From a virus (Duplodnaviria > Heunggongvirae > Uroviricota > Caudoviricetes): a stretch of DNA of 37,010 bases. Positions within the stretch are counted from its first letter, which is position 1; the number at the start of each line of letters is the position of its first letter. Positions 1 through 35,500 of the stretch are shown here, one piece after another. The position numbers and the translations under genes are program-made. Location of the stretch: the IMG/VR virus record IMGVR_UViG_2778261177_000006; one strand, 5' to 3'. The notes under the pieces are model-generated. The model was given only the letters and a program-made list of their open reading frames with translations, was not told where the DNA came from and did not search any database.

Positions 1-1293
<1,293 letters not shown>

Positions 1294-5192: not shown

Positions 5193-5246
5193 TAAGTAAT
5201 ATGCAGGCGGCGCAGTGCGTCGCCTCTGACTGAAAGGAGTTTCCTG

Positions 5247-8570: not shown

Positions 8571-8576
8571 GGAGTC

Positions 8577-9071
8577 ATGGCCATGATGATGATCTACGGC
8601 ATGTTTGTTTTTGAGCTGCGCACGTTGCCGCATCAGCAGTTACAGCAAAATAAAAGCTGGCGGCATGTGAAAAATGAACGCGTTAACCGTTCAGCAAGCT
8701 GGCAGTATATCGGGGCAGGCGATGATCGTATTGTTCTTTCTGGTGTGCTTTATCCTGAAATTACAGGTGGTGAAGTGTCACTGTCGCTGCTGACCACGCA
8801 GGCGTATACAGGACGCCCCTGGCCTCTTATTGATGGCGTCGGGCAGATTTACGGCATGTATGTTCTGACCGAAACGAATACGACCCGTTCCGAGTTTGAT
8901 CGCTACGGTAAGGCGAAAAAGATAGAATTTTCACTGACCCTTGAACGCTGTGATGAGGATTTGCGGGAGCGCCTGCAATCCTCATCGTTCAGCGATATGC
9001 TGTCCGGCTTCAAAGATAAGGTGACATCATCTCTTAACAGCGCAACCAGTTCAGTTAAAGGGCTGTTCTGA
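8577..9071 (+). CDS. U: Tail protein U (164 aa); true start may be the third ATG at about 8583
   Basis: Size and position directly after the tape measure; GAGGAG RBS overlaps the T stop. Confidence 0.8.
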   Translation: MAMMMIYGMFVFELRTLPHQQLQQNKSWRHVKNERVNRSASWQYIGAGDDRIVLSGVLYPEITGGEVSLSLLTTQAYTGRPWPLIDGVGQIYGMYVLTETNTTRSEFDRYGKAKKIEFSLTLERCDEDLRERLQSSSFSDMLSGFKDKVTSSLNSATSSVKGLF

Positions 9072-9325: not shown

Positions 9326-9853
9326 TTACTCAGGCTTTTGTGGCCATTCGGGCTTTGCTGTATCCACACGGCTGACCAGAACGCTGTAGCGTTCCCAGGC
9401 TTCCAGTCGTGTGCGCTCCTCATCCGTCGCCATATTCAGCCTGACAGCGCGTTCCAGCTGCTGGATGACTGATTCAGCTTCGGAAAGCAATGCGGCCTTT
9501 TGTAATTCGGCCTGCTGTTGCTGCTCGTCTGCCGTATAAATCCGTTTAACCACAGCTCCGTCCTTAAACAGCCACTTTCCTGAATCGTCGGCGCGACGAT
9601 TGGCGGTGATATCGGGAACTTCGACAACGCTGTAGCCTGTAGGGTCCAGTGTTGAAGCGTCTCTGGTTACGGCCACAATAATATTGTTCTCGTCGTAAAG
9701 AATTTTTATTGTGTCCGGCTGAAAGTTCTTCACTTCCTCATACCAGTTTTTTCCGTCTTCTGACCACAGCCAGGCAACATTAAAATTTTTTGTTAGCTGA
9801 TATTGCTCAACGGTTTTTGGATTGCCGGCGACAATGTTTTTTAAATGCTGCAT
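9326..9853 (-). CDS. G: Tail fibre assembly chaperone (P2 G-like, 175 aa)
   Basis: Directly downstream of the tail fibre gene on the same strand; size typical for this chaperone family. Confidence 0.8.
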
Positions 9854-9856
9854 AAA

Positions 9857-12592
9857 TTACACCTGTGACACGTTGTACCACGTTCCGTTAATTAACTTTT
9901 GTATTGGTCTGAATACTGCCGGATCGTCGCCATCAACTTCGCCGACAATGCCAAGCCCGGTAATTACATGGCCTGATTTCTCATACATCACGCCTTTTTG
10001 CATGGTCTGAACAACACGTGTGCCAAGTCGGACATCCCTCACGTATCGGCCATCAAAATTGCCGTAATCCGAGGGGTTAACGCGCCCCGTAATATTTACG
10101 GTTTTATTACTCTGAATGCTTCCGGAAACAAAGCGCATAACATGGACGTTATTAGCATAAACATCCAGATTACCATCGCCATTTTGTTTAAAGCCCGTGT
10201 CATTATCACCCAAAACAATCGAATTACCGCCAAGAGCACTGGATGTTCCGATACCCAGAGCACCATTCAATTGACCACCAGATAACGACAGTGCACCGAC
10301 ATCTCCCGCTGTAGGTTTTCGCGTTGTGGTATAAAACTCAGACCAGTCAGCCTCGAATCCGTAACCGTCACGAGCAGAACGATAAAAAATACCGCCGTTC
10401 TTATAATTAACGCGGAACTGGGCGGCGGGGCAACTTCCTTCACCGATATTAAAATGAAGAATTAACGTTGATGCCCCACCAATATTTGCGTTATAGGCTC
10501 CGCTACTCCAGTTCCATCCAACGGCTTTATCATTCGCAACGGTGTCTCCTGTTTTTCCTGAAGCAAATGCACCAATATTTTTCGGCGTCAGGTTAATATC
10601 TGATGTCCCATCAAACGAAACGTTATTAATTTTACGGGCTGTTTTCAGCTTTGTTGCTGTCGCCGCATTGCCGGACAGTTCACCAGAAAGGCCAGCACTG
10701 AATGTTTGTTTCGCGCCCCATGTCTGGGCTTCGTCAATGATTGGTACTCGTCTTGCTGTGATCGTGCGGCTTCCCGGATTTCCTGAAATACGCACCATAA
10801 AAAAGCGGTAGTTCGCTTTACTTACAGTGCTGCGCCATACATGCATTGAGCGCCCCGTACCGGAATCATCACTCGGACCAACTGCGATGTTTATCAGGTT
10901 GCCATCAATGACGCCCCAGTCCATACCGTCGGGAATATTGGTCATATTATCCAGCCGAACGGTTATCAGACTGCCCGGCACAAAATCGTAGGTCTGCCAG
11001 TCCAGACTGGATAGTTTTGCCACTGCGCCACCGATGCCCAGATTCAGGGGAAGTGAATAAGATGTGTAAACTTCCCGCCATTCGCTCCATGAGCTGCCGG
11101 TAAAAACGCGCTCAAACGTGCGACCTTTAAGGGTTGTACCTGTTCCGGCAGTTGTATAACGCTGCCATACGTTAACACCATCAAAGCGCCTCAACACTTC
11201 CAGAATACCGAGGACTGTCACGCCGTTTCCGTCCAGTATTGGACCGTTGGTCGCTTTACCTGTAACGCTGTAAATACCTGGTGAAGTCACATCATTCAAA
11301 TCCCCGTCGTAATAACGACTCTCTGACTGATGACCGACTCTTAACCACGGTTCCCACTGCGGATTTGATGCATCCCAGCTTGCCGCAAGGCAGCGGACGT
11401 ACATATTTCCACGGCGAGTGGTATAACGTTGCGTTCTTCCATAATTCCCGCCTTCGAGGATCTCAAGCGTCCCCTGAGCAAAGCCGCCTTCCTCTGGATA
11501 ATTGCGTTCATATGAAGCTATAGCCGAGCTACTGTTACGCCATAAACCAAGATGCTCGGCGGCTCCAAGCGTATTCAGGTCTATAGTCGTACTCAAAGGG
11601 CGGGTAGCTGATTGAGTGTGACGCCATATGCCCCACGGACCATCAGAGCCATTCCACTTATTGGCGAGTCTGCGCATGTATACATTGCCGTCTCTCGTGG
11701 TGAAGCGTTGCGTACCTGCAAAATTGCCGGCAGCAAAAACCTCAAGCACACCGACAGCATTATCTTCCGGGAAATTTTTCTCCAGTGTTGCGTTAGTTGA
11801 GGTAGCTTTAGACCAGATCCCCAGATAAGCCTTAACGGGACCAAATGTATTCAGATCAGCATCAAGCGGCATTTCGCCATTGTTTTTCATAAACGTCAGG
11901 CTGGTAACGCCAACATTGCCCAGAAAAGCGCCCTTATCTGGAATATCGCCACCGTTCTGGTCTTTCTGCAGACGTTTCTCAGCATTGTCATAGGCTGCTT
12001 TTACTGCCTTTGGCGTTGCCGCCAGCTTTTCACTGGTGCTGTTTGTTGCACTGCTTAACTGGGTAAAACCTTTTTCTGTCAGCGTGGCGTCAGGATGGCG
12101 GCGGGATTGCTCATGCTCTGCGATTTTGTCATCGACGTAATCCTGCGTCGCCATCACTGTGCTGGCATCAATACTCAGCTCAACGGACGCCACGTTGCTG
12201 ACAATAATAACCATGCGGCAGGTCTGCGCGCGCCCGGAGCCTTCAGCGAGTTCAGGTTTATAGCTTTCCGCCATGTTAGCGACCGCAATCAGTGTTCCGG
12301 CATCGTCATACAGACCCAGCTCACGCATCCAGAAGCCGCCCACTTCTGGCGGTACAACCAGTTCAGCCACGATATAGTTTTTATTCTTGTTATCCACGCT
12401 GACTTTATTCAGAGCGTGACGCCAGACCTCATGCACCAGTTTCGTCTGACCGGCATCCGGCACCGGCAATTTGCCATTACCGTCACCCACGGCCATTGCA
12501 GACAGAGTTACTTTTTTCCCGCCGGGGACAGTGGCGGCTGCCAGCTTCGCGGCTCCGGCAGTAGTGATAACGGTTTTAAATTTCGTGCTCAT
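9857..12592 (-). CDS. H: Tail fibre protein (P2 H-like, 911 aa) with internal repeat modules
   Basis: Conserved N-terminal baseplate-attachment region followed by repeated segments (FPEDNAVGVLEVFAAGNFAGTQRFTTR / YPEEGGFAQGTLEILEGGNYGRTQRYTTR) and a Gly/Asn-rich C-terminus. Confidence 0.85.
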   Translation of the reverse strand: MSTKFKTVITTAGAAKLAAATVPGGKKVTLSAMAVGDGNGKLPVPDAGQTKLVHEVWRHALNKVSVDNKNKNYIVAELVVPPEVGGFWMRELGLYDDAGTLIAVANMAESYKPELAEGSGRAQTCRMVIIVSNVASVELSIDASTVMATQDYVDDKIAEHEQSRRHPDATLTEKGFTQLSSATNSTSEKLAATPKAVKAAYDNAEKRLQKDQNGGDIPDKGAFLGNVGVTSLTFMKNNGEMPLDADLNTFGPVKAYLGIWSKATSTNATLEKNFPEDNAVGVLEVFAAGNFAGTQRFTTRDGNVYMRRLANKWNGSDGPWGIWRHTQSATRPLSTTIDLNTLGAAEHLGLWRNSSSAIASYERNYPEEGGFAQGTLEILEGGNYGRTQRYTTRRGNMYVRCLAASWDASNPQWEPWLRVGHQSESRYYDGDLNDVTSPGIYSVTGKATNGPILDGNGVTVLGILEVLRRFDGVNVWQRYTTAGTGTTLKGRTFERVFTGSSWSEWREVYTSYSLPLNLGIGGAVAKLSSLDWQTYDFVPGSLITVRLDNMTNIPDGMDWGVIDGNLINIAVGPSDDSGTGRSMHVWRSTVSKANYRFFMVRISGNPGSRTITARRVPIIDEAQTWGAKQTFSAGLSGELSGNAATATKLKTARKINNVSFDGTSDINLTPKNIGAFASGKTGDTVANDKAVGWNWSSGAYNANIGGASTLILHFNIGEGSCPAAQFRVNYKNGGIFYRSARDGYGFEADWSEFYTTTRKPTAGDVGALSLSGGQLNGALGIGTSSALGGNSIVLGDNDTGFKQNGDGNLDVYANNVHVMRFVSGSIQSNKTVNITGRVNPSDYGNFDGRYVRDVRLGTRVVQTMQKGVMYEKSGHVITGLGIVGEVDGDDPAVFRPIQKLINGTWYNVSQV

Positions 12593-20018: not shown

Positions 20019-20855
20019 TCAGAAGTCAGCCAGCTGGTCGGAGGCTGCGCCCGTTGCGGTGAACCGGTTCTGCGGATCGCCGTCCTGCGTGCGCAGTTTT
20101 TCCTTCAGTGCTGCCAGCTCTGTGGTCAGTGAAGTGATTTTCTGGCTGTCCTGCTGATGGCGGGTTTCCAGTGCATTAAAACGGTCGATAATGTCGGCCT
20201 GTGACGTTGCGACGCCTTCCACCGCTTCCTGAATGCGGGAGAAACTGGCGTCATCCGCTTTGCGGCCACGGCCAATAATCCCCATTACGCGGTTAAACCA
20301 CTGGGTGCCTTCTTCCTGGCGTTGTTCTGCCATTTCGATGATTTCAGACTCGATGGCTTCGGAGATAAGCGGTGCTTCACCCTGGACACTGTTGAACGTC
20401 ATCACCGCCTGACGTTGCTGTGCCGTGAATTTCAGGCGCTCAGTGCCCAGGCTTGCCGGGGTGTCGGTCATCGCCAGCCCGACCAGATAGGCGCGCCCGT
20501 TAACGGAGAACTGCGGGTGCAGTTCGATACTGGAATAGATTTTCTTGCCGTCAGCGACAAGCTGCTTCATGCGCTCGGTCGGTTCGATTTCTGCATACAG
20601 CGCAGTACGTCCGGCCAGCGGGCCTTCCGTAATATCTTCCGTACTCAGCGCGGTGACATCGCCCATTGCGGAAAATTCGCTTGACGGGCATGGCGAGAGA
20701 TAGTGCTCAACGTTCACGCGGGCAGCGTAAACATCCGGGTTGAAGTTCTCGGCGGCTTCACGCAGATGTACCGGACTGATTTCGCGGCCATCAACAGTTG
20801 ATCCGGAGACAGCCACGCGAAACTTTTTGCGGGATGTCTTTTTTTCATTAGCCAT
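20019..20855 (-). CDS. O: Capsid scaffolding protein O (start at MANEKK with AGAGGGG RBS)
   Basis: About 278 aa, first gene of the minus-strand late operon, divergent from the terminase gene. Confidence 0.85.
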   Translation of the reverse strand: MANEKKTSRKKFRVAVSGSTVDGREISPVHLREAAENFNPDVYAARVNVEHYLSPCPSSEFSAMGDVTALSTEDITEGPLAGRTALYAEIEPTERMKQLVADGKKIYSSIELHPQFSVNGRAYLVGLAMTDTPASLGTERLKFTAQQRQAVMTFNSVQGEAPLISEAIESEIIEMAEQRQEEGTQWFNRVMGIIGRGRKADDASFSRIQEAVEGVATSQADIIDRFNALETRHQQDSQKITSLTTELAALKEKLRTQDGDPQNRFTATGAASDQLADF

Positions 20856-21009
20856 AGTTTTTGCCCCTCTGACTGGTTCTTCAGTCATGATGGCAAAGCG
20901 TAACAGGCTGATACAAAGGGCTTTTGTTGTAAGAAAACGGCCAGAACAGGGGGGTAAGGAGAACGGTTTCGCGCGCGGGTAATCTTCCTGTAATTACTCA
21001 GGGGGAGCA
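20856..21009. promoter_or_regulatory. Divergent late-promoter region between scaffold O and terminase P
   Basis: Intergenic stretch separating two divergent late operons; no canonical TGT-N12-ACA Ogr site was found by eye. Confidence 0.35.
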
Positions 21010-22761
21010 ATGATTCAGGACGCTTTTGTGCGCCAGCGTGCGCGGCAACTTTACTGGCAGGGTTATCCGCCCGCAGAAATATCACGTCTGATGGGAATAA
21101 ACCCGAACACGATTTATGCGTGGAAAAAACGCGACCAGTGGGATGAAACGCCACCCGTGCAGCGTGTCACGCAGTCCATTGATGCGCGCCTCATCCAGCT
21201 TACTGAAAAACAGAATAAAACAGGCGGTGACTTTAAGGAAATAGACCTGCTGACCCGGCAGCTTAAAAAGCTGCATGATGGCCAGCCGGATGTGATGGCC
21301 GCAGGAAAGAAAGGCCGGGCGAAAAAACTCAAAAATCATTTCACGCCGGAACAGATTGCCGCACTGCGGGAAAAAATCATCAGCAGGCTGGAGTGGCATC
21401 AGCGGGGCTGGTTTGACTCCCTGACCCTTTGCAGGGAAGCCGGGATACGTAACAGGATGATCCTGAAATCCCGACAGATTGGGGCGACCTGGTATTTTGC
21501 ACAGGAAGCACTGCTGATGGCGCTGCGTGACGATGTGGCGCAACCTTACCAGCGTAACCAGATTTTTTTGTCTGCGTCGCGTCGTCAGGCGTTCCAGTTT
21601 AAAAGCATTATTCAGAAGGCCGCGGCTGAAGTTGATGTGGAGCTGAAAGGGGGTGATAAAATCATCCTCTCCAACGGCGCAGAGCTGCATTTTCTCGGCA
21701 CTTCTGCTGCGTCGGCACAGTCCTATACGGGCAATTTTTATTTTGATGAATTTTTCTGGGTCAGTCGCTTTGCTGAACTGCGCAAGGTGGCTGGCGCTAT
21801 GGCAACCCTCAGCGGACTGCGGCGCACCTACTTCTCCACGCCATCCACCGAAACGCACGAGGCATACGCCTACTGGAACGGCGACCGCTGGAACGAGAAA
21901 AAGGCCTCGCATAAACGCCAGCGTTTTTCTGTGGACTGGAAAACGCTGCATAACGGACTTATCTGCCCTGACCGGACATGGCGGCAGATTGTCACGCTGG
22001 AAGATGTGGTTAATCACGGCTGGAAACACACCGATATTGACGAAATCCGTGATGAAAACACCGAAGACGAGTTCCTCAATCTCTACATGTGTGAGTTTGT
22101 CCGCGAAGGGGAATCGGCATTTAACCTGAATATCCTGATTGGCTGCGGCGTTGACGGATACGACGACTGGAAAGACTGGAAACCTTTTGCTCCCCGCCCG
22201 ATGGGAAATCGTCCGGTATGGATTGGGTATGACGCAAACGGCAGCAGTGGCAACGGCGACAGCGGCGCTGTGTCCGTGGTGGTTCCTCCGGCTGTTCCTG
22301 GTGGCCGTTTTCGAACGGTGGAGACGCGACGCGTTCAGGGGCTGGAGTTTGAAGAACAGGCCAGAGTCATTGAAGAGTTCACGTGTCGCTACAACGTGGA
22401 ACACATCGGTATTGATGTGACGGGCGGGAACGGGGAGGCTGTTTATCAGATAGTGAAACGGTTTTTCCCTGCTGCTATTCCGTACACCTTCACGCTGTCA
22501 TCAAAACGGTCGCTGGTACTGAAAATGCTGCAAATAATGCGTGCCGGGCGGTGGGAATACGATCGCGCCGAACGCGAGCTGGTCGCGGCCTTTAACGCCG
22601 TGCGTAAGGTGAAAACACCGGGCGGCTTTATCACTTACGAAACGGACCGCGCGAGGGGGATCAGCCACGGCGACCTTGCGTGGGCAACCATGCTTGCTGT
22701 CATTAACGAACCGATTGGCGGCGAAGGAGAAAACGAGCGTTTCACGGTTATGGAGTTCTGA
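21010..22761 (+). CDS. P: Terminase large (ATPase) subunit P (583 aa)
   Basis: About 580 aa with ATPase-like N-terminal half and acidic nuclease-like C-terminal half; divergent from O as in P2. Confidence 0.9.
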   Translation: MIQDAFVRQRARQLYWQGYPPAEISRLMGINPNTIYAWKKRDQWDETPPVQRVTQSIDARLIQLTEKQNKTGGDFKEIDLLTRQLKKLHDGQPDVMAAGKKGRAKKLKNHFTPEQIAALREKIISRLEWHQRGWFDSLTLCREAGIRNRMILKSRQIGATWYFAQEALLMALRDDVAQPYQRNQIFLSASRRQAFQFKSIIQKAAAEVDVELKGGDKIILSNGAELHFLGTSAASAQSYTGNFYFDEFFWVSRFAELRKVAGAMATLSGLRRTYFSTPSTETHEAYAYWNGDRWNEKKASHKRQRFSVDWKTLHNGLICPDRTWRQIVTLEDVVNHGWKHTDIDEIRDENTEDEFLNLYMCEFVREGESAFNLNILIGCGVDGYDDWKDWKPFAPRPMGNRPVWIGYDANGSSGNGDSGAVSVVVPPAVPGGRFRTVETRRVQGLEFEEQARVIEEFTCRYNVEHIGIDVTGGNGEAVYQIVKRFFPAAIPYTFTLSSKRSLVLKMLQIMRAGRWEYDRAERELVAAFNAVRKVKTPGGFITYETDRARGISHGDLAWATMLAVINEPIGGEGENERFTVMEF

Positions 22762-23807
22762 TGAGCAGAAAAAATAAAAAAGTGCGCATGAGTTCACGCA
22801 TTGATCTCGCTGATGCGCTCAGGAAAGAATCATCGCTCAGTGCATTCACATTTGATGGTCCTTATCGCCTGACCGGGCATGACCTGCTGGACAATATGTA
22901 CTGTGCTGATAACGGGCGGTGGTATGAAACCCCGGTGGACTGGTACGGTCTGGCAAGAGCTGCCCGGCAAACGTCCTGGCATCAGTCTGCGCTTTACTTT
23001 AAGCGTAATGTATTGCTCGGCTGCTATATTCCGCATCCGCTGCTTTCCCGGCAGGATTTCTCGGCGCTGGCGCTGGACTGGTTTGTGTTCGGTAACGCAT
23101 TCCTTGAGCTTCGGAGCAATATGCTCGGCGAACCGCTTAAATTACGGCACGCCCTGGCGAAATACATGCGACGCGGAAGCGATCTTGAATCATGGTGGTA
23201 TGTGCAGGATGGCAAGGACGCGTTTCAGTTTCGCCCTGGCAAAGTGTGCCACCTGATGAATCCTGACATTAACCAGGAAATCTACGGCATGCCGGAATAT
23301 CTCGGCGCATTACTCTCGGCCAGCCTGTCTCATTCGGCGGACATGTTCAGAAAACTGTATTACGACAACGGATCCCACGCCGGGTGTATCATCTACATCG
23401 GTGCAGCGCAGGTAAACCGCGAAAGCATGGACTCCCTGAAAGAAACGCTACAGGGTGCACGTGGTGGTGGTGCGTTTAAAAACGTGCTCATTCATGCGCC
23501 CAACGGGGGCAAAGAAGGTGTGCAAATTTTGCCGTTCCAGCAGATCACCGCAAAGGATGAGTTCATGAATGTTAAGGCGGCATCCCGTGATGATGTGCTG
23601 GCTGCGCACCGCGTTCCGCCGCAACTGATGGGGGCGATGCCGGGTGAAAAAAGTGCGTTTGGTGATGTGGAAAAGGCCGCGCGGGTTTACGCAATTAACG
23701 AGCTGATGCCCGTTATGGAGGCCATGAAGCACATCAATGACTGGCTTGGCGAAGAGGTGATCCGTTTTAATTCTTATGCTCTTCTTGATGAAAAAACAGC
23801 CCCGTGA
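22761..23807 (+). CDS. Q: Portal protein Q (348 aa)
   Basis: Start overlaps the terminase stop (TGATG); size matches P2 gpQ. Confidence 0.9.
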   Translation: MSRKNKKVRMSSRIDLADALRKESSLSAFTFDGPYRLTGHDLLDNMYCADNGRWYETPVDWYGLARAARQTSWHQSALYFKRNVLLGCYIPHPLLSRQDFSALALDWFVFGNAFLELRSNMLGEPLKLRHALAKYMRRGSDLESWWYVQDGKDAFQFRPGKVCHLMNPDINQEIYGMPEYLGALLSASLSHSADMFRKLYYDNGSHAGCIIYIGAAQVNRESMDSLKETLQGARGGGAFKNVLIHAPNGGKEGVQILPFQQITAKDEFMNVKAASRDDVLAAHRVPPQLMGAMPGEKSAFGDVEKAARVYAINELMPVMEAMKHINDWLGEEVIRFNSYALLDEKTAP

Positions 23808-23828
23808 TGGGGCTGTCCTTTTTACCAG
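23796..23828. terminator. Bidirectional terminator between convergent portal gene and orphan gene
   Basis: Stem cagcccc/ggggctg with an A run on one side and a T run on the other; contains the portal stop codon. Confidence 0.6.
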
Positions 23829-24346
23829 AGTTGAACCATTTTCTGGGTGCCGTCAGGCTTGAGATTATCAATTTCAGAGAGAACGTAATATTGAATGGCT
23901 TCACAAACGGTGGTGTATGGTGAATTACCTTCTTTAAGTGGCACGATATTATTATTAACGCGAACCTGTATTTCATCGTTATACATTGCGATCGAAAGAG
24001 GAGTATGCACGAAGGCGACTTCGCCAGGTGTGTCGTCAACCACTGTCTCAATGCTGAAAATCAGTTTTCGCTCATCATTGCCGCCCCTTGCTTTGGGGGT
24101 AGCGGCAGGAATCTGAGATAAAGGCATTCTGCGAAACCCTTCAGCCGTTTCCAGTCCGCATGAAACGTAATGCTGGCGATTACCGTCGCTATCCGTCCAT
24201 GTCTGTGATGGCAGCTCCAGAGAGATTTCATAAGCATCAACAATTCCCTGGGCAATGCGTACAAGCGGGGTCAGGTCTTCATTGCGGCGAAAACTCTCCT
24301 TTACCTGATCTCGTTTTTCTCGTAACTGCTTGTAATTAATGACCAT
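23822..24346 (-). CDS. Hypothetical protein, about 174 aa (start at MVINYKQL with GGAGG RBS); function unknown
   Basis: Clean ORF with strong RBS, own terminator, convergent with portal; no family recognised; GC visibly lower than the structural genes. Confidence 0.55.
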   Translation of the reverse strand: MVINYKQLREKRDQVKESFRRNEDLTPLVRIAQGIVDAYEISLELPSQTWTDSDGNRQHYVSCGLETAEGFRRMPLSQIPAATPKARGGNDERKLIFSIETVVDDTPGEVAFVHTPLSIAMYNDEIQVRVNNNIVPLKEGNSPYTTVCEAIQYYVLSEIDNLKPDGTQKMVQLW

Positions 24347-24448
24347 AGAACAGCCTCCATTGATTTCTTTGCTCGTATTTTGCACTTATGAAGTGTGGTC
24401 GGCAAGGTGCCGCATCACTGACGCGCTTCGCTTGTCTGCTGCTTCGCC

Positions 24449-24471
24449 GGGGCATAAAAAATTTATGCCCC
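24449..24471. promoter_or_regulatory. Perfect palindrome ggggcataaa-aaa-tttatgcccc upstream of the orphan gene
   Basis: 10-bp inverted repeat with 3-nt spacer read directly from the sequence, in the promoter-proximal region of the 23822-24346 gene. Confidence 0.4.
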
Positions 24472-24844
24472 GACTCTCCAGCTCCTGTATCAATCAGATA
24501 ATTTCGCGACGTCTTCCGACTTATCGCTATCATCGACGGCCAGACTCTTACACAATCCCGCCGCGCTGACTGCATGTTCTCGCCGCCTCAGTGCGATTTT
24601 GACGGCCTTACCTTTCATCCCATCAAATCAGAACACCTTACGTCTTTTTCACGCTCAGCGTGAGCGATACAGCCATTTTGTTGTGTCGCTGCGACATCGT
24701 TCAGGGAATGCTATTTACCCCCTGAAACGCGGGCTGTTCCCCCGTCACCTGCGCGCAGAAAAAGCGCGTTTTTTTGTGCACGCACGGATCCTTGACGGAT
24801 CCAGCCGCCATGCGGGCCGGAAGGGTAAAAAGTCGTTCAAAAAA

Positions 24845-24871
24845 ATTGTGCAAATTTGTGCACTTTTGTGC
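24845..24871. repeat. Three direct TTGTGCA repeats phased at 10 bp
   Basis: ttgtgcaaat / ttgtgcactt / ttgtgcaaac in tandem, one helical turn apart, next to the terminator hairpin. Confidence 0.6.
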
Positions 24872-24877
24872 AAACAA

Positions 24878-24900
24878 AAAGCGCCCCTGAGGCGCTTTAG
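24878..24900 (-). terminator. Rho-independent terminator of the parMR-containing operon (agcgcc-cctg-aggcgct)
   Basis: GC stem directly after the last minus-strand gene, followed on the minus strand by a T run. Confidence 0.6.
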
Positions 24901-24932
24901 TGTTTTATAGGTTGTGTATATTGGCTGGGTCC

Positions 24933-25196
24933 TTATCCTGCTGTGCTTTCAACTGATGAGGGGAACAAAATCTTTTCATCAAACCCTGCATTCATATCAT
25001 GGACAGCAACACACCAATCCATTGACGAACGATTATCAAGAGCCTCCATGATTTCATCCATGCGGCGTAGGTCATACAGGTAAATGCTTTTATCGCCAAT
25101 GGTGTAAAAACCAATTTTTTTCGGTGATGGACAGCGATCAAGAACGTCCTGTAATTCGCTCAACCATGCTTGTTCTTTTTTTGTCAAAGTTGCCAT
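24933..25196 (-). CDS. Hypothetical protein, about 87 aa (start at MATLTKKEQ)
   Basis: Last gene of the parM-parR operon; tightly packed with the upstream ORF; no family recognised. Confidence 0.45.
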   Translation of the reverse strand: MATLTKKEQAWLSELQDVLDRCPSPKKIGFYTIGDKSIYLYDLRRMDEIMEALDNRSSMDWCVAVHDMNAGFDEKILFPSSVESTAG

Positions 25197-25648: not shown

Positions 25649-25963
25649 TCACTCTGGGAAAAATGACTGAATGTTCTTTCTTATCTCGCTAGTGCTGTGA
25701 TTGCTTCCGGTGGCAGGTGCGCTGGCATATTTACTCTGAATATTATTCTTGGCTGGCGCAGCTCCTTCTTCCGGCCATTCGGCCAACCAATAGGCAAATG
25801 CAGGATCGCGTTTTATGAGTGCCAGCCCGGCCAGAAAGGCCGCGCGTTGCGCGCGGCTGCGTTCAGAGGCTGGCAGGCTGTCGAGGTAATTACACGCCTC
25901 CCGTTCACTATTGACGGCGACTGGCTTCAGATAGAAACTTATCCGTCTGGTTGGTGTCGTCAT
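25649..25963 (-). CDS. parR: ParR-like ribbon-helix-helix centromere-binding protein (about 104 aa, start at MTTPTRRISF)
   Basis: RISFYLKPVAVNSEREACNYLDSLPASERSRAQRAAFLAGLAL closely parallels plasmid R1 ParR (RTIAFKLNPDVNQTDKIVCDTLDSIPQGERSRLNRAALTAGLAL); AAGGAG RBS; immediately downstream of parM. Confidence 0.75.
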   Translation of the reverse strand: MTTPTRRISFYLKPVAVNSEREACNYLDSLPASERSRAQRAAFLAGLALIKRDPAFAYWLAEWPEEGAAPAKNNIQSKYASAPATGSNHSTSEIRKNIQSFFPE

Positions 25964-25967
25964 TGGT

Positions 25968-26927
25968 TTACTCCTTGTCCATTGCGTACAAACCATTGAC
26001 CAGAGCAAACTGTGGCACCCCGTCCGCGATGAAAGTCGCATTAACTCCGCAGGCTTCGCGGATAGCGGGTGCCACAATCTCCGCCCCGCCACCGACAACC
26101 ATCACCCGCCCGTAACCCGAAAAACCCGCCAGCGCGCGGATCACTCGTTGTTTCAGCGTTTCTTCCTTTTCACGAATAACCGCCATCAGGCTGTCGTAAT
26201 GCGCGTCATTGTGGATGTGCTGGCGCAGCCAGGCTTCATCGTGGCGATGTTCGATAATGGTATTGGCGATATGGTGACTGGTACGCATACCGTTAGTGGC
26301 CATCACCGACAGTACGGCATCGGCCATCAGGGAAACGCCTACGTGTGGATCGCAAAACACCTGGCTGATACCTGCCAGTTGTCCCTGGACCTTTGCCACA
26401 TCCAGCGTGGTTCCGCCTAAATCCACAATCAGCAGGGATTCAAACGGACTCATGTCAGCCAGTGCTTTAAAACCAGCCGGAATGGATTCAGGCATAACCC
26501 GTACGTTACGGATAGTGAATGCTTTTCCGTTCTGGTACGCCACCGGGCGCATGACGTTTGCTTTTTTGCGGTTGATGTTGGCCATGTCCGGCTGTGCGTT
26601 TGTGTCGAAATATTCGCTCAGTGGCAGGGTGACAACCACATCCACTTCCTGTGGTGTGATGCCTGATTTGACCAGCGCGTGATGAATGGCAATGACATTC
26701 ACATCGCTGTACTGGTATTGCGTGTCGGTCGTCTGGACAAAGCGATCGCTGACCGGATCAAAACCATAGCGCACGCCATCAAGCATGTAGTTTGCGGGCT
26801 GCGTGCCACCGAACGGCGCAGACCATTCCGACTTGAAGCTGTTCGGGCTGATGGCGTTGCGGCGTTCGCCGTTCTCAGTCCATGCCAGCTTGATGTTGGT
26901 GGAGCCGTCGTCGATACAAATTTTCAT
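25968..26927 (-). CDS. parM: ParM/StbA-family actin-like segregation ATPase (319 aa)
   Basis: Near-complete colinearity with R1 ParM landmarks: IDDGSTNIKL, SPNSFK, YSDVNV-A-HHAL, KKAN, VMPESIPAG, DLGGTTLD, GVSL, VMV-GGGAE, LVNGLY. Confidence 0.85.
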   Translation of the reverse strand: MKICIDDGSTNIKLAWTENGERRNAISPNSFKSEWSAPFGGTQPANYMLDGVRYGFDPVSDRFVQTTDTQYQYSDVNVIAIHHALVKSGITPQEVDVVVTLPLSEYFDTNAQPDMANINRKKANVMRPVAYQNGKAFTIRNVRVMPESIPAGFKALADMSPFESLLIVDLGGTTLDVAKVQGQLAGISQVFCDPHVGVSLMADAVLSVMATNGMRTSHHIANTIIEHRHDEAWLRQHIHNDAHYDSLMAVIREKEETLKQRVIRALAGFSGYGRVMVVGGGAEIVAPAIREACGVNATFIADGVPQFALVNGLYAMDKE

Positions 26928-27003: not shown

Positions 27004-29826
27004 TCATATATCGCGGCGCGTTTTTTGCTCATTTACGGGATTTGTGAATCCCGTTTCTGTCTGTTTTTTGTTTCCACTGGTCAGGCCACCCCGCAGCAGG
27101 TCTGCTTTGCGGCGGGCACGTTCAGTGGTTTCACTGATTCTCTGTGCGTGCTCTGCGTCGCGGATGGCGCGCAGCATGTCAGAAAGCACGGTAACGGGTG
27201 TTTTCATGGTGTTCTGGTCCTGCTGAAGTGTGGATGCCAGGCGTGTGGCGGCTTCAGGGTCTGATGCCCCCAGCTGTGCCAGATAGCTGGCGACCGGGTT
27301 ATGGCGGATCTCCGTGCTGCTTACACCGTGATTACGGCTCAGGCGCTGCCAGAGCTGCGTGATTCGGCTGTCCGGGCGGGTATCCGGTTTGCGTACAATT
27401 TCAAATCCCTGCGGTGCAATGATGCTGCCGTCAACGTACAGACTGCCGCCCCGTAACAGGTGCTGCATTTGTTGTTCACCGATATGCAGGCCGAGAGATT
27501 CAGCAGACTCCCGCCATTCTCTAGCGAGTAATTCGTGGTTATCAGGCAAAGGCCGCTGCTGTTTGCGGCTCTGTGTCCAGCTCTGCATTTCATCACTGCT
27601 GTTTTTTGCCTGTTTGTCACGAAGCGAACGCATCAGCGCCCGGCGTTCGTGCCGTTTCAGTGAGCGCATCCATTCGTTCACTTCAACGCCGTCAGGGAGC
27701 TGCGGCCACGGTGCTGGCCGTTCTTCCGGCTGTTCTGTCCCGTTGTTGTCCGTTTCCTGTACACGGGGACAGTTATTGCCACGAGTCCAAGGGGCGGCAG
27801 GGCCGCCCTGAAGGTCAAAACCATTTTCGCGGGCGCTGTCTTCCGCTTCCGGTTTGCGTCTTACCAGCTTCCAGTTATCCGGATGCGTGCACACACGGGA
27901 GGATTCCCCGATGAGTGGTGACCAGATCCCGTAAATCTGTACGCCCTGCTCGCCGTAATCGTTCAGCTCATCTGCGAGGTCGTAGGCGGTGCGAATCAGG
28001 TAGTCCTTGCGTGGAACAAGTACGCCACCCTGTTTTTCAATGTAGGAGGCAAAACACCCGGCATCAGCGGCAGCAAGAACCGCATCCATTGCGTCATCCT
28101 TCAGCCGTTGCGGGCCTTCCGGGTTGCGTGCCATCTGGCTGGCAAGGCGGCGGAGTTCACGCCACACCTGACGGGAGGGGATGCCAAAGAACTGGAACTG
28201 GCGGACCCGGTGAAGGCGCGCCCAGCCGATGGCGCGCTCCACGCTCTCGGCCATTGATTTACCTGTTTCGTGGTCAACGCGTGGCTTGCCCGTTTTCGGG
28301 TCGATGCCATCCACGGCGCGGCTGTCCAGGTTCTTTCCGATGTAGGTCGCGATATAGCTGGTTGGTGTGCCTTTTGAGCCGTCGACATACTCCACCTTAA
28401 AGCGCGGAGTAATATCATTGCCGAGCTCGTGGCGGTCTTCCTGAATGGCAATATCGCGGGTGATGGCCACGATGCTGTCGATTTCTTCCGGATGTGCAAA
28501 GACCATCATATGCCAGTGCACTGTGCCGTCATGGTGAGGCTCCACCGTGCGGATGCCATACCAGCGAAGACCGTCGCGGTTCAGTTTTTTGCGGACCGCT
28601 GCAAAAAACGTGTTAACCAGGTAATCGCTGGAGTCGCGCATGGTGGCCCCGTTCCATCTGGGATTCGGATGACCGTTCTCTGTTGTGGCGTGGTACTTCG
28701 AAGGGGTGGTGACAGTCAGAAACACCGCTCTGTCGCCACGGGCTTCGGCCAGAAGTTCCAGCCCCTTCATGGTGGCCATCATTTCTGCCTTACGGTGAAC
28801 CGGGTTACTTACTCCCGCGTAATACACTGTCTCGAGATCAATCGTGAACCCGTCTTCGTTTTCCAGCATGAAACTTTTCAGGAAGTCGCGTGTTTTCTCG
28901 CGCTGTGCGCGAAACTCGCTTAACGCGTCCTGGCTCAGATAGGGCGATGTTTTTCTGGAAACCAGACAGGCGGCACGGAGTTGTTCTTCCCGCCACTCGC
29001 AACGTAACAGCCACAGTTTGCGTTTCCACCATTCCGCACAGGTCAGACGAAGGATTGCGCCCGGCAGCAGCTCCGTGTCCGGTTCGTTCCTCCGGTCTTT
29101 GTCTGTTGTCAGTGCTTCGTAATGCGGCGGCACGGTGTGCAGGTGTAACGCCATGCGGGCCAGCATCTGATACGCCTTCAGTGCCACCTCCATGGTCAGC
29201 TCACCATCAGTCGCGCCAAAGCCATCGCAGAGTTTTTCGAAGGTGCTGCTGAACATCGCCGCCGTCATGGTGGCCAGCGTCTGTATCTGGTGTTTGTTGA
29301 GCTGCGGCAGGTAAAGCAAATCATCCAGGCGTTCACGTCCGGCGAGGGAGCGATAACCCGGTGTCAGCCAGCGACTGTCGGCACGGTTAATGCGATCGAA
29401 TATCTTGCGCAGGGTTCCGCGTGCATAGCGTTCTGCCTGCCAGCTCTTTTTGCCTTTCCGGCGATCGGCTTCCTGTTTTTTGCGCAGGAAGGAGAGGTGG
29501 CGAATAAGCGGATCGCGCAGATAAGACGGCAGCAGGCGCAGCGAGGCCATGGCTTCATCCACCGCGCCGCGTGCCTGTTTTCTGGCGTCTCCTGCCAGTG
29601 TGATGGTTTTGTCCTGTTTTTCCTGTGCGTCCAGGCTTTTATTAATCAGGTTGCCCAGCGGCGTGGCGGAGAACGCCGCATCAGCCATTTCCTGGCGGCG
29701 CTCGTTCTCTGCCCGGTAGGCATCCAGCCAGGAGGAAAGCGCGGATTCAGGAGCGGGGATCCCCGTTCCTTCACGCCCCACTGCGTGGCGCGGTTGTTGC
29801 CAGTCCCTGATGTACTCTGCCGTCAT
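27004..29826 (-). CDS. A: Replication initiation endonuclease A (rolling-circle initiator, P2 gpA family), 940 aa
   Basis: HUH-type motif (HWHMMVFAH) and tandem active-site tyrosine motif (YIATYIGKN) in the translation; largest early-region ORF. Confidence 0.9.
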   Translation of the reverse strand: MTAEYIRDWQQPRHAVGREGTGIPAPESALSSWLDAYRAENERRQEMADAAFSATPLGNLINKSLDAQEKQDKTITLAGDARKQARGAVDEAMASLRLLPSYLRDPLIRHLSFLRKKQEADRRKGKKSWQAERYARGTLRKIFDRINRADSRWLTPGYRSLAGRERLDDLLYLPQLNKHQIQTLATMTAAMFSSTFEKLCDGFGATDGELTMEVALKAYQMLARMALHLHTVPPHYEALTTDKDRRNEPDTELLPGAILRLTCAEWWKRKLWLLRCEWREEQLRAACLVSRKTSPYLSQDALSEFRAQREKTRDFLKSFMLENEDGFTIDLETVYYAGVSNPVHRKAEMMATMKGLELLAEARGDRAVFLTVTTPSKYHATTENGHPNPRWNGATMRDSSDYLVNTFFAAVRKKLNRDGLRWYGIRTVEPHHDGTVHWHMMVFAHPEEIDSIVAITRDIAIQEDRHELGNDITPRFKVEYVDGSKGTPTSYIATYIGKNLDSRAVDGIDPKTGKPRVDHETGKSMAESVERAIGWARLHRVRQFQFFGIPSRQVWRELRRLASQMARNPEGPQRLKDDAMDAVLAAADAGCFASYIEKQGGVLVPRKDYLIRTAYDLADELNDYGEQGVQIYGIWSPLIGESSRVCTHPDNWKLVRRKPEAEDSARENGFDLQGGPAAPWTRGNNCPRVQETDNNGTEQPEERPAPWPQLPDGVEVNEWMRSLKRHERRALMRSLRDKQAKNSSDEMQSWTQSRKQQRPLPDNHELLAREWRESAESLGLHIGEQQMQHLLRGGSLYVDGSIIAPQGFEIVRKPDTRPDSRITQLWQRLSRNHGVSSTEIRHNPVASYLAQLGASDPEAATRLASTLQQDQNTMKTPVTVLSDMLRAIRDAEHAQRISETTERARRKADLLRGGLTSGNKKQTETGFTNPVNEQKTRRDI
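27032..27070. repeat. 38-bp repeat unit 2 (tttacgggatttgtgaatcccgtttctgtctgttttttg) inside the 3' end of gene A
   Basis: Same architecture as unit 1; lies within the last ~20 codons of the A ORF. Confidence 0.6.
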
Positions 29827-30868: not shown

Positions 30869-31699
30869 TTACTTCACCGGAACAAACGGAACAGCGGTAT
30901 TGCTGGTCATATATTGCGGCAGCGTGCCGTTCCATTTGTTGATTGCTTCCAGCTCCATAACGCCGGGATTCTGACGCAGAGCTTCACCGCGTAAACGAAT
31001 GGCGTCAGCTTCAGCCTGGGCTTTTGTGCGAATGGCATCAGCCTGTCCGGCAGCTTCTGCGCGCAACATGTTGGCTTCAGCTTCGCGTTGCTTGACTTCC
31101 TGTTCGCGTTGCAGGGTTTTCTGGTTTGCCGTGACTTTGGCGTTAATGCTGTCGATAACGGTTGGCGGATATTCCGGTTTACCGACATAAGAGAGGCTCA
31201 TGACCTGAATGCCGATGGGGGTCATCTCTTCCTGAATATCTTTAAGTGCTGAATCCAGCAGTTCAGACTTACCACCGTCGATAAACTTATCGGTGGTCAT
31301 TTTGCTGGCCAGTCGGTTGAGTGCATCGGCGATCTTCTGGCGCAGGTCAGTGTCGGTAATGTCATCCACGCCTTTGCGGTAGGTTTGAAACACTGTGGTA
31401 ACTTTGGATGGATCAACCTTGTAGGCCACACCGATGTGATAGCCGATGGTTGTGCCGTCACTCATCTGAAAGCTGAACGGCTCATCGTAGGTCTTCATTT
31501 GTTTGAAGGTCGGGAAGATGTAAACCTCGGTATTCCAGCCAGTCCAGTAGCGGCCAACGCCAACCACTTCGCCAACGCCTTTGTCGTCGCCCAGCTTGTT
31601 GACTTTGATGCCCACATTACCTGGCTCAACGCGATCGCAGCCAACCAGCAGGATGGCGGCAAAAAGCGGGAGAATCTGAAAGAGTTTGAATTTCTTCAT
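30869..31699 (-). CDS. SPFH/band-7 (prohibitin/stomatin-like) domain lipoprotein, 276 aa
   Basis: N-terminal signal peptide with lipobox (LLVGC); SPFH core (GNVGIKV...) followed by an Ala/Glu-rich coiled coil (AEANMLRAEAAGQADAIRTKAQAEADAIRLRGEA). Confidence 0.8.
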   Translation of the reverse strand: MKKFKLFQILPLFAAILLVGCDRVEPGNVGIKVNKLGDDKGVGEVVGVGRYWTGWNTEVYIFPTFKQMKTYDEPFSFQMSDGTTIGYHIGVAYKVDPSKVTTVFQTYRKGVDDITDTDLRQKIADALNRLASKMTTDKFIDGGKSELLDSALKDIQEEMTPIGIQVMSLSYVGKPEYPPTVIDSINAKVTANQKTLQREQEVKQREAEANMLRAEAAGQADAIRTKAQAEADAIRLRGEALRQNPGVMELEAINKWNGTLPQYMTSNTAVPFVPVK

Positions 31700-32696: not shown

Positions 32697-33113
32697 CTAT
32701 GCGTTAAATACGGCACGTTGCGCGTCATCAATGAATACAGCTTGAGAGCGTTCTATCAGGCGGAGATTTGTCAGAAGCTCTGACTCTTTTGTGTGGTAAG
32801 GCGTTATCAGGTATTTGCCGTGCAGTTCGGCAATAATGGTGTATTGCGTCATTATTGCCGAACCAAGAATGTAAATGCGGCGTCCAATGCTGGACGGATT
32901 CATGGCTGCAACTGTTGACTGTGTTTTAAGAGTGTCGATTTCTTTGCCCTGTTCCTCAATAATTTTGGCTGCGTCAGCGGTGATTTTTGCGATGGTCAGT
33001 GCGTGAAGTGCTGCCATATGTTGGCTACGCTTCACGGCATCTTTAGCCATTTCATCTTCCGCTTCTGATATTTTTTTTAATGTGTTGATAATGCCTTCTT
33101 CTTTTGCGTTCAT
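32697..33113 (-). CDS. Hypothetical protein with N-terminal coiled coil, 138 aa
   Basis: ORF in a visibly AT-rich segment; no family recognised. Confidence 0.45.
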   Translation of the reverse strand: MNAKEEGIINTLKKISEAEDEMAKDAVKRSQHMAALHALTIAKITADAAKIIEEQGKEIDTLKTQSTVAAMNPSSIGRRIYILGSAIMTQYTIIAELHGKYLITPYHTKESELLTNLRLIERSQAVFIDDAQRAVFNA

Positions 33114-33205
33114 TTTATATCTCCATTATTTACGTGTGCGAATACCTCCGTTAATACGGATGGTTTTCACGTTTTCTTATTTAATTTGATGTTTTATTTG
33201 TATCG

Positions 33206-33319
33206 TTATTCATCAGAGAAAAAACGCTCGATCTTTTTCACTGAATTAATAATTCGCATAATCCCAATGGCGCAGACCACCGAAATAATCAGAATAAGCC
33301 ATGAGATAAAGATACTCAT
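33206..33319 (-). CDS. Small hydrophobic peptide, 37 aa (MSIFISWLILIISVVCAIGIMRIINSVKKIERFFSDE)
   Basis: Hand-translated; ATG overlaps the upstream stop (ATGA); single predicted transmembrane helix; below the ORF-track cutoff. Confidence 0.35.
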   Translation of the reverse strand: MSIFISWLILIISVVCAIGIMRIINSVKKIERFFSDE

Positions 33320-33558
33320 GCAATATTCCCCAGCTTATACGGTTCAATATGTTCCCCGCATTCTGCGGCACAGATCAGCTCGGAAAGTTCGTTAAGTGCA
33401 TCCAGATCATCAGCGTAAAAAGCCACGTCATACAGACTCCGGATTGCCCTGGTCAATGAGTCACGGGCTGCACGTTCAGCATGAGCGCCTGATGCACTTA
33501 AGCGAAAATAAAAACGCTCAAGTGCTTTATTAATGAGAGTTTTATATTCTTTGCCCAT
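33316..33558 (-). CDS. Hypothetical early protein, 80 aa
   Basis: ORF co-directional with the early operon; no family recognised. Confidence 0.45.
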   Translation of the reverse strand: MGKEYKTLINKALERFYFRLSASGAHAERAARDSLTRAIRSLYDVAFYADDLDALNELSELICAAECGEHIEPYKLGNIA

Positions 33559-33650
33559 CGCAACGCCCTTTAATCTGCTTTCTGAATTTCAGTTTCTGAA
33601 TCCATACAAATAATTTCGATATAGGGTTTATCGCCATTAACCTGGTGTGC

Positions 33651-33857
33651 CTATTCAGCTTCGCTAATGATTTCTCGTACGGTCTGGTACGGAAGTTCCA
33701 CAAGCAGTCGCGTGCCGTTCAGATAAACGTAAGTGGCTTCGTCGACTCCGTTTTTACCCGCCGGAGCCACTCCATCAATAGCGGATGCGCGTAATAACAG
33801 TTCACCGCGAAAATCAATAAAACGGATAAATACACCTTGTGCATGCTCTTTGGTCAT
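33651..33857 (-). CDS. Hypothetical early protein, about 68 aa (start at MTKEHAQ)
   Basis: Start chosen to avoid overlap with the upstream gene; no family recognised. Confidence 0.35.
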   Translation of the reverse strand: MTKEHAQGVFIRFIDFRGELLLRASAIDGVAPAGKNGVDEATYVYLNGTRLLVELPYQTVREIISEAE

Positions 33858-33867
33858 AAAGCACCTG

Positions 33868-34218
33868 TTATAAATCAGCCTGTTTAATAAAACTTTGTCC
33901 GCGAAGCAGACGATCAACCGTGCGTAGTGCTTCGTATAATGTGAAATCCTGCCCGAACTGATTGTCGCCGCTGCTTAGTGCAAAAATGCGATTTCCGGTA
34001 AACGGATTGCGTGGGCATTTATGGACCACGATTCCAGCTTTCTCAATCAGCCAGGAATGCTCGCCGATTTGTTTTACTGGGTGGCCATCCGGCGTTGCGT
34101 GTGTATCACTCAGGCTGTAGCGGATGTTGCTGCGTGATGCACTGGTAGCGAAACGGTTAGCATGGCGTTCCGCACCGTTGCGGAAGCGCTGCTGTGAAGA
34201 ATTGCGCTGTAGTTTCAT
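33868..34218 (-). CDS. Hypothetical early protein, 116 aa
   Basis: ORF co-directional with the early operon; no family recognised. Confidence 0.45.
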   Translation of the reverse strand: MKLQRNSSQQRFRNGAERHANRFATSASRSNIRYSLSDTHATPDGHPVKQIGEHSWLIEKAGIVVHKCPRNPFTGNRIFALSSGDNQFGQDFTLYEALRTVDRLLRGQSFIKQADL

Positions 34219-34353
34219 ATTAAAACTCTGTACCTTCGGTAAGGTGTACTCGTGTCACCTTGTATTGATTTGTGGTATTTTTTGTGTGTCTAGGACTTGG
34301 ACTGGCCGGTTCAGGTCCTGGCTTATGTTTAATTAAATTGTTTAGAGGTTTTC

Positions 34354-34545
34354 ATGTCAGAAGATAAAAAAGTTGTTAATTTGTTGAGTGAACTTAGTGC
34401 TGCTCTGGATAACATTAACTCTCCCAGGGTAAAAACGACGGGTGATAAAGACGCATTAAACGCAGAGATTCATATATTACTGGCGTTAGTAACTGACAAA
34501 ATTCAGCGTAAATACCCACCTGTCACACAACTGGTTGATTTTTAA
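34354..34545 (+). CDS. Hypothetical small protein, 63 aa, convergent with the neighbouring AT-rich gene
   Basis: AGAGG RBS before the ATG; shares a terminator hairpin with the convergent minus-strand gene; AT-rich. Confidence 0.45.
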   Translation: MSEDKKVVNLLSELSAALDNINSPRVKTTGDKDALNAEIHILLALVTDKIQRKYPPVTQLVDF

Positions 34546-34551
34546 TTTGAT

Positions 34552-34974
34552 TTATGCCGGGCTGCTCCCGGCATCTTCTAGCTGCCATAATGTCTCGTCA
34601 CCTGATAGAGCAAAACGAAATGAGTGAAGTATATCCTCCCGAGAGAAGCTCACGGCTACAGCTGCGGGAAAGTCAAATATAATCCCACCTTCATTTTTAA
34701 AACGATTACGCAATTGATAGGCTATCGGTTTGATTTGTGCAGGAAGAGTATCTATATCTCTTCCATTGACAACAGAATCTTTGTTTTCAAGTACTGATTT
34801 AGCGATTAGATATAGATGCCAGTAACTGGTTACAATTGTTACTCCTGTGATGTGTCGTAAATTAATTGCAATTCGTCCGTTATTATGTTTTTCCGCAAGG
34901 TATTTCAGGTTATCAATTAATGCTTGGTCATTTTTTGAAATAGTTATTGTGAAATCTGACGTGTTTGTTTTCAT
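34552..34974 (-). CDS. Hypothetical protein, about 141 aa (start at MKTNTSDF), AT-rich
   Basis: ATG one codon after the upstream stop; visibly low GC; no family recognised. Confidence 0.5.
   Translation of the reverse strand: MKTNTSDFTITISKNDQALIDNLKYLAEKHNNGRIAINLRHITGVTIVTSYWHLYLIAKSVLENKDSVVNGRDIDTLPAQIKPIAYQLRNRFKNEGGIIFDFPAAVAVSFSREDILHSFRFALSGDETLWQLEDAGSSPA
34554..34576. terminator. Bidirectional hairpin (gccgggctgctcccggc) between convergent genes
   Basis: Inverted repeat gccggg...cccggc located between the two stop codons. Confidence 0.45.
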
Positions 34975-34978
34975 ACGA

Positions 34979-35500
34979 TTAGTTGCCTCTGTTGTTTCTG
35001 AGTTGCTCCAGTTTTGAGCTTCTGCCTGTATAAATTCGCTTACCGTTAATGGTCTGGCAGTCTTCTTTATTAGCTGGAGAGAACTTCCTTTTCTGGCGGT
35101 CATACGTCCAGTAACTTTTCCAGTTGTGCCATTCTGGGGGCTCGTACTCTGGTAGCTCATCAGCCAACTTGTCCCACTCTTTGGCGTTAAACCACCATAC
35201 TCCGTCTGAGTTTTCATCTTCCGGGTTTGTGCGCGTTTTGTGTCCCGGCATTTGACCGCGATGAATGGCTACGCGCAGTGCAGATTTTGTTAGCCCAATA
35301 TATGCCGCGCCTTTTTCCAGAGAGCAAAGCCCGGCGATCGGACCATCCAGCCGTAAAGTCGCTCCTTTTTTGTAGGAACGCTTTTTCTTGTTTTCTTCGT
35401 GTTCGTCGTCGTTGGCGGCATCAGCGGGTTCGCCAATACCACCACTTTCCTGGAGTTGTTGAGTGTCAGATAACTCTTTATCGGCAATGATGTCCCGCAT
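34979..35500 (-). CDS. First early-operon gene, putative HTH DNA-binding regulator (Cox/Apl position), 173 aa
   Basis: Divergent from the C repressor gene; helix-turn-helix-like segment (AAYIGLTKSALRVAIHRGQMPG); much longer than P2 Cox, so function assigned by position only. Confidence 0.45.
   Translation of the reverse strand: MRDIIADKELSDTQQLQESGGIGEPADAANDDEHEENKKKRSYKKGATLRLDGPIAGLCSLEKGAAYIGLTKSALRVAIHRGQMPGHKTRTNPEDENSDGVWWFNAKEWDKLADELPEYEPPEWHNWKSYWTYDRQKRKFSPANKEDCQTINGKRIYTGRSSKLEQLRNNRGN

Follow-up and report, generated by a model that had tools for sequence, protein, structure and literature searches.

A PHROG 5091 gene beside the portal gene of a P88-like prophage is very probably autonomous, dispensable cargo under selection

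The bor and lom genes of phage lambda are the classical morons in the Hendrix/Juhala definition. The bor gene adjoins the cos site and is oriented opposite to the late genes. In phage P2, the Tin protein acts by binding a phage protein, not by catalysis. Both old and tin have their home in the gpA-gpQ interval, the cos-proximal defence hotspot of P2-like phages (PMC9122126). Three of eight additional systems cloned from this hotspot were found to be active, a ParM/StbB pair was recorded in about a quarter of P2-like phages, and the hotspot also holds partition genes and toxins (PMC9122126). The hotspot has since been confirmed again in PMC13586616 and in bioRxiv 10.1101/2024.10.15.618418.

The window, the whole stretch of 37,010 nucleotides that was analysed, is a P2-family prophage adjoining the host gene serS. 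By megablast, the region falls in the P88-like group (Xuanwuvirus, Peduoviridae). Similar to the described hotspot cargo (PMC9122126), a 174-aa accessory gene is located between gene A and the portal gene Q, inside the gpA-gpQ hotspot (Table 1). It occupies the portal side of the probable cos block, against the portal stop, whereas the rest of the hotspot cargo of this prophage lies on the A side. The product is listed as WP_032152538 in Table S5A of Rousset et al. 2022 (PMC9122126), only as ‘hypothetical’, and does not appear as one of the systems tested in the parts of that article that were searched. A literature search by accessions and family identifiers returned no paper mentioning the protein. 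The gene is already catalogued and unstudied, and its kind, a moron or P2 hotspot cargo, is known.

Table 1. Positions of the features of the window and of the type B gene in related prophages (the latter numbered within each locus).
Feature	Position	Strand	Basis or remark
serS	1-1293		Host gene
Ogr-type activator	1927-2187		
gpD	2230-3360	-	Pfam-confirmed
Capsid scaffold	20019-20888	-	
Large terminase	21010-22761	+	
Portal (gpQ homologue)	22761-23807	+	ORF; ‘phage portal protein’ in identical or near-identical records
Variable block	23758-24417		Four-way alignment of the window, 569R5, P88 and P88_4B11
Bidirectional intrinsic terminator	23796-23816	both	Terminator scan; inverted repeat I2; 9-bp stem
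Accessory gene, 174 aa (PHROG 5091 ‘type A’)	23822-24346	-	Convergent with portal; ORF and translation, RefSeq, phrog_5091, dN/dS
GGAGG ribosome-binding site (RBS)	24354-24358	-	7 nt 5′ of the ATG; read from the sequence
Candidate sigma-70 promoter	24377-24405	-	-35 TTGCCG 24400-24405, 17-nt spacer, -10 CAAAAT 24377-24382
Conserved non-coding block, probable cos region	24418-24870		Alignment with P88 and P88_4B11; sequence print
Backbone hairpin	24448-24472		Repeat I3; 11-nt perfect arms 24448-24458 and 24462-24472, 3-nt loop, no U-tract
Non-coding stretch of ~580 bp, then small ORFs	Between accessory gene and partition pair		
ParM/StbB partition pair	25649-26927	-	ParM (StbA_N/ParM_N) and Plasmid_stab_B
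Replication gene A (gpA)	27004-29826	-	
Integrase	Starts 36003		
Type B gene, locus L015	4355-4858		
Type B gene, locus L016	4354-4857		
Type B gene, locus L019	3501-4004		
Type B gene, locus L020	3074-3577		

Several further features of the prophage were recorded. The + strand block at 3496-9071 apparently encodes the tail sheath, tube, chaperone, tape measure and gpU, judged by the size and order of its ORFs. This block would be inverted relative to the P2 gene order. The sizes and order of the ORFs at 9326-12592 (- strand) suggest tail-fibre genes, and gpD is also on the - strand. An SPFH/Band-7 domain protein (Pfam E = 6e-31) is encoded downstream of gene A at 30869-31699 (-), within the early region. 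It has no PADLOC match and is possibly further accessory cargo. Adjoining the integrase is a block of low GC (38-45%) at ~33000-35500, containing a DUF4761 protein (33868-34218) and a 221-aa ORF (34552-35217) for which no match was found in Pfam or PADLOC. The interval from the integrase to gene A (primase) has been described as a minor defence hotspot of P2-likes (PMC13586616). Despite its ParM/StbB partition pair, the P88-like backbone was chromosomal in 1317 of 1318 places in the E. coli genomes.

The original prediction described a gene of about 174 aa, preceded by a GGAGG RBS and convergent to the portal gene, and all of these elements are present. The start codon is the ATG at 24346. A 187-aa version from the GTG at 24385 was rejected, since the GGAGG lies just upstream of the ATG, the RefSeq entry (WP_032152538.1, ‘hypothetical protein’) is likewise 174 aa long and the homologues begin with MVINY or M.ITY. 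The GAG core of the RBS is kept in all six aligned homologues. The protein is soluble and mildly acidic (19.8 kDa, pI 5.0); a signal peptide and a transmembrane (TM) segment were looked for and neither was found. The lower GC that had been noticed is evident, at 46.1% (GC3 44.6%) for the accessory gene versus 52.6% (GC3 58.5%) for the portal and 54.1% (GC3 60.8%) for the terminase. In pairwise comparisons of the gene from E. coli and Salmonella, dN/dS is 0.07-0.22 and dS reaches 0.73. Of the 397 E. coli genomes that carry the gene, 395 have an intact reading frame, and truncated copies were also found (e.g. H10407 and the fragments P0011-P0018). Judged by these substitution patterns, the gene is functional and under purifying selection.

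Relative to P88 and P88_4B11, the window and phage 569R5 share an extra block of ~0.65 kb (~23758-24417). It contains the diverged last ~16 codons of the portal, the terminator, the accessory gene, its RBS and ~70 nt of upstream DNA with the candidate promoter, and ends at the right junction CTGACGCGC (24418). In P88 and P88_4B11 the portal stop is joined straight to CTGACGCGC. The GC of 23790-24417 is 46.5%. The gene is present in four of 16 related phage records and varies in presence among prophages that are otherwise 91-96% identical. It was found in 397 of 5426 complete E. coli genomes, of which 1146 have the backbone junction; in ~750 (about 65% of the backbone-bearing genomes) the junction is empty. 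A check of related prophages for its presence or absence had been proposed, and both states occur. The carriers (~7% of complete E. coli) include ST131 and the O145, O111 and O121 STEC, and the gene is 100% identical to the locus in E. coli O145 RM8988-C1.

Phage P88 is mitomycin-inducible and forms plaques (PMC5285337). As P88 is viable without it, the accessory gene does not encode part of the structural or packaging machinery of this lineage. Such a conserved protein was the outcome named beforehand as speaking against cargo, and it is rejected: the gene is missing from 12 of the 16 phage records, from ~65% of the backbone-bearing genomes and from viable P88. The accessory gene is dispensable for the phage.

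The terminator at the 3′ end of the gene is common to the portal and the accessory gene. The last four codons and the stop of the portal form the left arm and loop of the hairpin, with the stop (23805-23807) in the loop. It is regarded as bidirectional because a T-run follows the stem on the + strand and TTTTTT on the - strand, in agreement with the bidirectional terminator originally claimed. The stem is kept through compensatory changes in the distant homologues of loci L013, L016 and L017. On the other side of the gene, Salmonella homologues (~60% protein identity) keep a -35 (TTGCCG or TTGTCT), the -10 CAAAAT and the exact 17-nt spacing of the candidate sigma-70 promoter; the sequence of the spacer and the more distal upstream DNA no longer align in them. 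It is this conservation that points to a promoter, which would be weak by consensus. The candidate is absent from the promoter-scan calls, as only eight of its 12 consensus positions match. The operon upstream ends at a strong terminator (24878-24898).

The gene is a typical moron in three respects: it is absent from relatives, has its own terminator and deviates in GC and GC3. Like lambda bor and lom, it is inserted between sequences that adjoin each other in relatives, carries a promoter-like element and a terminator, and differs in base composition. Its position beside the probable cos and its orientation against the late genes are those of bor. The products of bor and lom are envelope proteins, whereas the accessory product is predicted to be cytoplasmic. 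The suggestion of independently regulated cargo is supported by the insertion polymorphism, the low GC and GC3, the terminator, the conserved -35 and -10 elements and the viability of P88. We regard it as very probable that this is an autonomous, dispensable and selected cargo gene.

A second part of the original prediction contrasted the locus with P2, in which the portal abuts the cos site. The accessory gene is indeed inserted between the two. However, a conserved non-coding block of ~450 bp separates them even in phages without the gene, so the portal does not abut cos in the P88-like lineage. The block holds a GGATCC-N5-GGATCC motif at 24786-24802, and three TTGTGCA repeats with exact 10-nt spacing are found at 24846-24872. 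The linear P88_4B11 record ends at the window equivalent of 24827. The block may have a role in packaging, and the repeats look like binding sites for terminase or a host factor. The P2/186-type cos 19-mer was not found near the locus, and P88-likes thus appear, by their sequence, to use a cos different from the P2/186 type.

A perfect TGT-N12-ACA dyad, as found in the P2 late promoters that depend on Ogr, lies in the backbone block at 24679-24696. The window holds just one other such dyad, and for the one in the block no obvious -10 is seen at the expected distance on either strand. The cargo unit has no such dyad. The only Rfam match within 23700-25000, to SprD, was dismissed as chance (E = 0.65, 17.7 bits against a cut-off of 100 bits).

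The gene had been described as an orphan without a family, and this does not hold. The protein is a full member of PHROG 5091 (phrog_5091, E = 6.4e-66, 222 bits), with residues 1-168 aligned to positions 1-164 of the 164-position profile, and relatives occur in several phage types. A profile search of 1.84 billion representative proteins returned 78 representative clusters at E <= 1e-3, and all 40 diverse relatives match PHROG 5091. The relatives are mostly 155-185 aa in length. The close ones come from E. coli, E. albertii, Salmonella and Yersinia enterocolitica, the distant ones from Edwardsiella, Xenorhabdus and Providencia. In a locus search with the close alignment, Salmonella enterica was the only species representative returned. 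When 50,697 phage records were searched with three tblastn queries, the only ones to match were the four P88-like phages and CharmingMan, which has a lambdoid Q-lysis gene layout. As far as lifestyle can be read from gene content, carriers of PHROG 5091 are temperate phages and prophages only.

The search for remote homology thus yields a family, albeit one of unknown function. PHROG 5091 is unannotated and lacks both a solved structure and a counterpart in Pfam, NCBIfam or PADLOC, and the database names of its relatives are all ‘hypothetical protein’. Neither the accessory protein nor any of the 40 relatives has a meaningful match in Pfam, NCBIfam or PADLOC. In PADLOC-DB v2.0.0 the accessory protein matched no family, and a single match among the relatives was at chance level (E = 0.009). 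A Pfam match to Complex1_LYR was also attributed to chance (E = 0.051, 14 bits against a cut-off of 24.8 bits). Matches by phmmer to designed helical-repeat proteins in the PDB (E down to 2.8e-7) were rejected as an artefact, since the individual stretches have i-Evalues of 2-36 and it is the repetition within the designs that inflates the total. A profile search of the PDB sequences with the 40-sequence alignment gave nothing below E = 0.04.

The position of the gene differs between phage types. In all P2-like prophages examined (L013-L017), it is directly convergent with the portal. In L012, L018 and L024 it is located between the holin and the antiterminator Q, which is accompanied by a PR'/tR'-like promoter and terminator, and in L004 and L025 between the lysis cassette and the terminase. 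In the E217-like prophages (L005, L007, L010, L011 and L026-L031) it is flanked by the tail chaperone and the tape measure, and a hairpin resembling a terminator lies 3′ of the gene. PHROG 5091 therefore occupies late-region moron sites in at least four temperate-phage architectures. No neighbour is constant across these loci, which argues that the gene is a single-gene unit. Lambdoid and E217-like phages have the gene in the same orientation as their late genes, and late lytic expression is therefore likely in them. In two E217-like IMG/VR contigs, the tail chaperone and the PHROG 5091 gene are separated by ~1 kb of additional sequence (L026 5007-6001; L028 4967-6001). This is not a PHROG 5091 paralogue and may be another moron stacked at the same site.

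Some P2-like prophages contain a second form of the gene, termed type B, on the cos side of the conserved hairpin. It encodes a protein of 167 aa (MSHFNDLC...), a divergent paralogue of type A (hhalign probability 98%, ~20% identity). Type B was found in 31 of 5426 E. coli genomes. It stands alone in L019 and L020 and in tandem with type A in L015 and L016. The corresponding slot of the window, just right of 24472, is empty. As the two types sit at adjacent slots, the portal-proximal site carries one family in two diverged forms or is empty. The slot occupied by the accessory gene is almost binary, either empty or filled by PHROG 5091, whereas the gpA-gpQ hotspot is otherwise highly diverse; the many kinds of cargo present on the gpA side do not occur at the portal-proximal slot.

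The hairpin between the two slots is the perfect palindrome that the original prediction had placed upstream of the gene. The palindrome exists but is part of the backbone, not of the cargo unit, as it is invariant in the alignment with P88 and P88_4B11, both without the accessory gene. In these phages its equivalent comes directly after the portal stop, and in L019 and L015 the type B gene ends just short of it. The hairpin thus marks gene ends in both directions. From its sequence, it could serve as a binding site for a protein or as a bidirectional terminator of an atypical kind.

A confident model of the accessory protein was obtained by AlphaFold2 with the 40-sequence alignment (pLDDT 89.9, pTM 0.80). 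It begins with a helical hairpin, continues as a meander of antiparallel strands, about nine in number, and closes with a helix at the C-terminus. The proposed structure prediction has therefore provided a fold but no named relative, as a Foldseek search of the model against BFVD found nothing. The model shares a generic two-layer alpha/beta likeness with the PI31/Fbxo7 FP domain, actin-capping protein and type III secretion system (T3SS) chaperones; such resemblances between a predicted model and known folds are not evidence of homology. Only L43 and W50 are invariant across the 40-sequence alignment. The near-invariant positions are mostly hydrophobic or aromatic, and the ‘TV.DDSP.GG’ loop is not strictly conserved across the family. 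From this sparse and mostly hydrophobic conservation, and the lack of a TM segment or signal peptide, we infer that the gene encodes a soluble alpha/beta protein that serves in binding or as a scaffold, not as an enzyme.

The proposed model is a single-gene moron in which promoter, RBS, coding sequence and terminator form one unit, located where the portal gene ends, inside the gpA-gpQ hotspot. The gene would be transcribed in the lysogen from its own weak sigma-70 promoter, and the bidirectional terminator would insulate it from late transcription of the portal. The product would then bind stoichiometrically to a protein of an incoming phage or satellite. The outcome would be superinfection exclusion or defence, with a logic closer to that of P2 Tin than to enzymatic abortive infection. 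Like the accessory gene, tin and old are single genes of a P2-family prophage near cos, and they are expressed in the lysogen, as the accessory gene would be; their products differ in size from the accessory protein and the resemblance is in logic only.

A lysogen-expressed factor that excludes or defends by stoichiometric interference with a component of an incoming phage or satellite is a tentative proposal, held at clearly less than even confidence. It draws on the record of the hotspot, in which three of eight additional cloned systems were active (PMC9122126), although location is only a prior and partition genes and toxins reside there too. The two types, with ~20% identity and adjacent, sometimes tandem slots, would fit a diversification of specificity. 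Against this stand the lack of PADLOC matches, the weak consensus of the candidate promoter and the late lytic expression likely in lambdoid and E217-like phages. A stand-alone soluble protein with neither an enzymatic nor a membrane effector would also be uncommon among defence systems. An anti-defence inhibitor would be an equally good fit to these properties. In that case, the protein would inhibit a host immune system stoichiometrically (e.g. restriction, a retron or nucleotide signalling) and thereby help infection or induction. Its physical character agrees with such a role, but its orientation in P2-likes and the restriction of the family to temperate phages fit less well, and we consider counter-defence rather unlikely, if a serious contender. 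Somewhat more doubtful still is a host-directed conversion or immunity factor that raises the fitness of the lysogen independently of phages. Two kinds come into question: an orphan immunity protein, directed against a bacteriocin or a contact-dependent toxin, and a protein that modulates host physiology. The prevalence of the gene among pathogens may stem solely from sampling and from the range of hosts open to the prophage. None of the 40 members matches a Pfam Imm or SUKH immunity family at E <= 0.01, and no toxin-like neighbour, which could be cognate to it, was seen in any locus examined.

The family is always found in late regions, beside the portal and cos, the terminase, the lysis genes or the tape measure, and this, together with a weak resemblance to DarA, would suit an accessory of the phage life cycle. 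Such a protein could modulate packaging, head completion, lysis timing or the exploitation by satellites (P4) without being essential, or it could reside inside the virion. We consider this improbable, as the gene is missing from about two thirds of near-identical prophages and from viable P88, has no consistent neighbour across phage types and, in P2-likes, is oriented against the late operon with a terminator between them. The truncated copies mentioned above, and the absence of a known function, could also indicate a decaying or selfish remnant without current function. This is very hard to reconcile with a dN/dS of 0.07-0.22 over a dS of up to 0.7, a frame intact in nearly all carriers, conserved regulatory signals and a confident fold prediction from the family alignment, and is given hardly any weight. 

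On a broader view, PHROG 5091 as a whole may be a structurally new, single-protein class of phage-conflict factor, acting in either defence or counter-defence. Its types A and B would be specificity alleles flanking the portal-side hairpin, and it would also serve as a moron in lambdoid and E217-like phages of Enterobacterales; the chances of this broader proposal are judged to be even.

The locus offers a natural comparison of phages with the gene (569R5, 705R2 and PhiR44_2) and without it (P88), and the cargo forms a self-contained 0.65-kb cassette. Should no phenotype emerge, the gene would be one more hypothetical moron. A gene that sequence comparison indicates to be under selection lies in the best-documented defence hotspot of the P2 family, with neither an annotated function nor a recognisable fold. 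Should it act in exclusion or counter-defence, phage-phage conflict would gain a small, structurally new player that is not an enzyme, and a common polymorphism in clinically important lineages would be explained.
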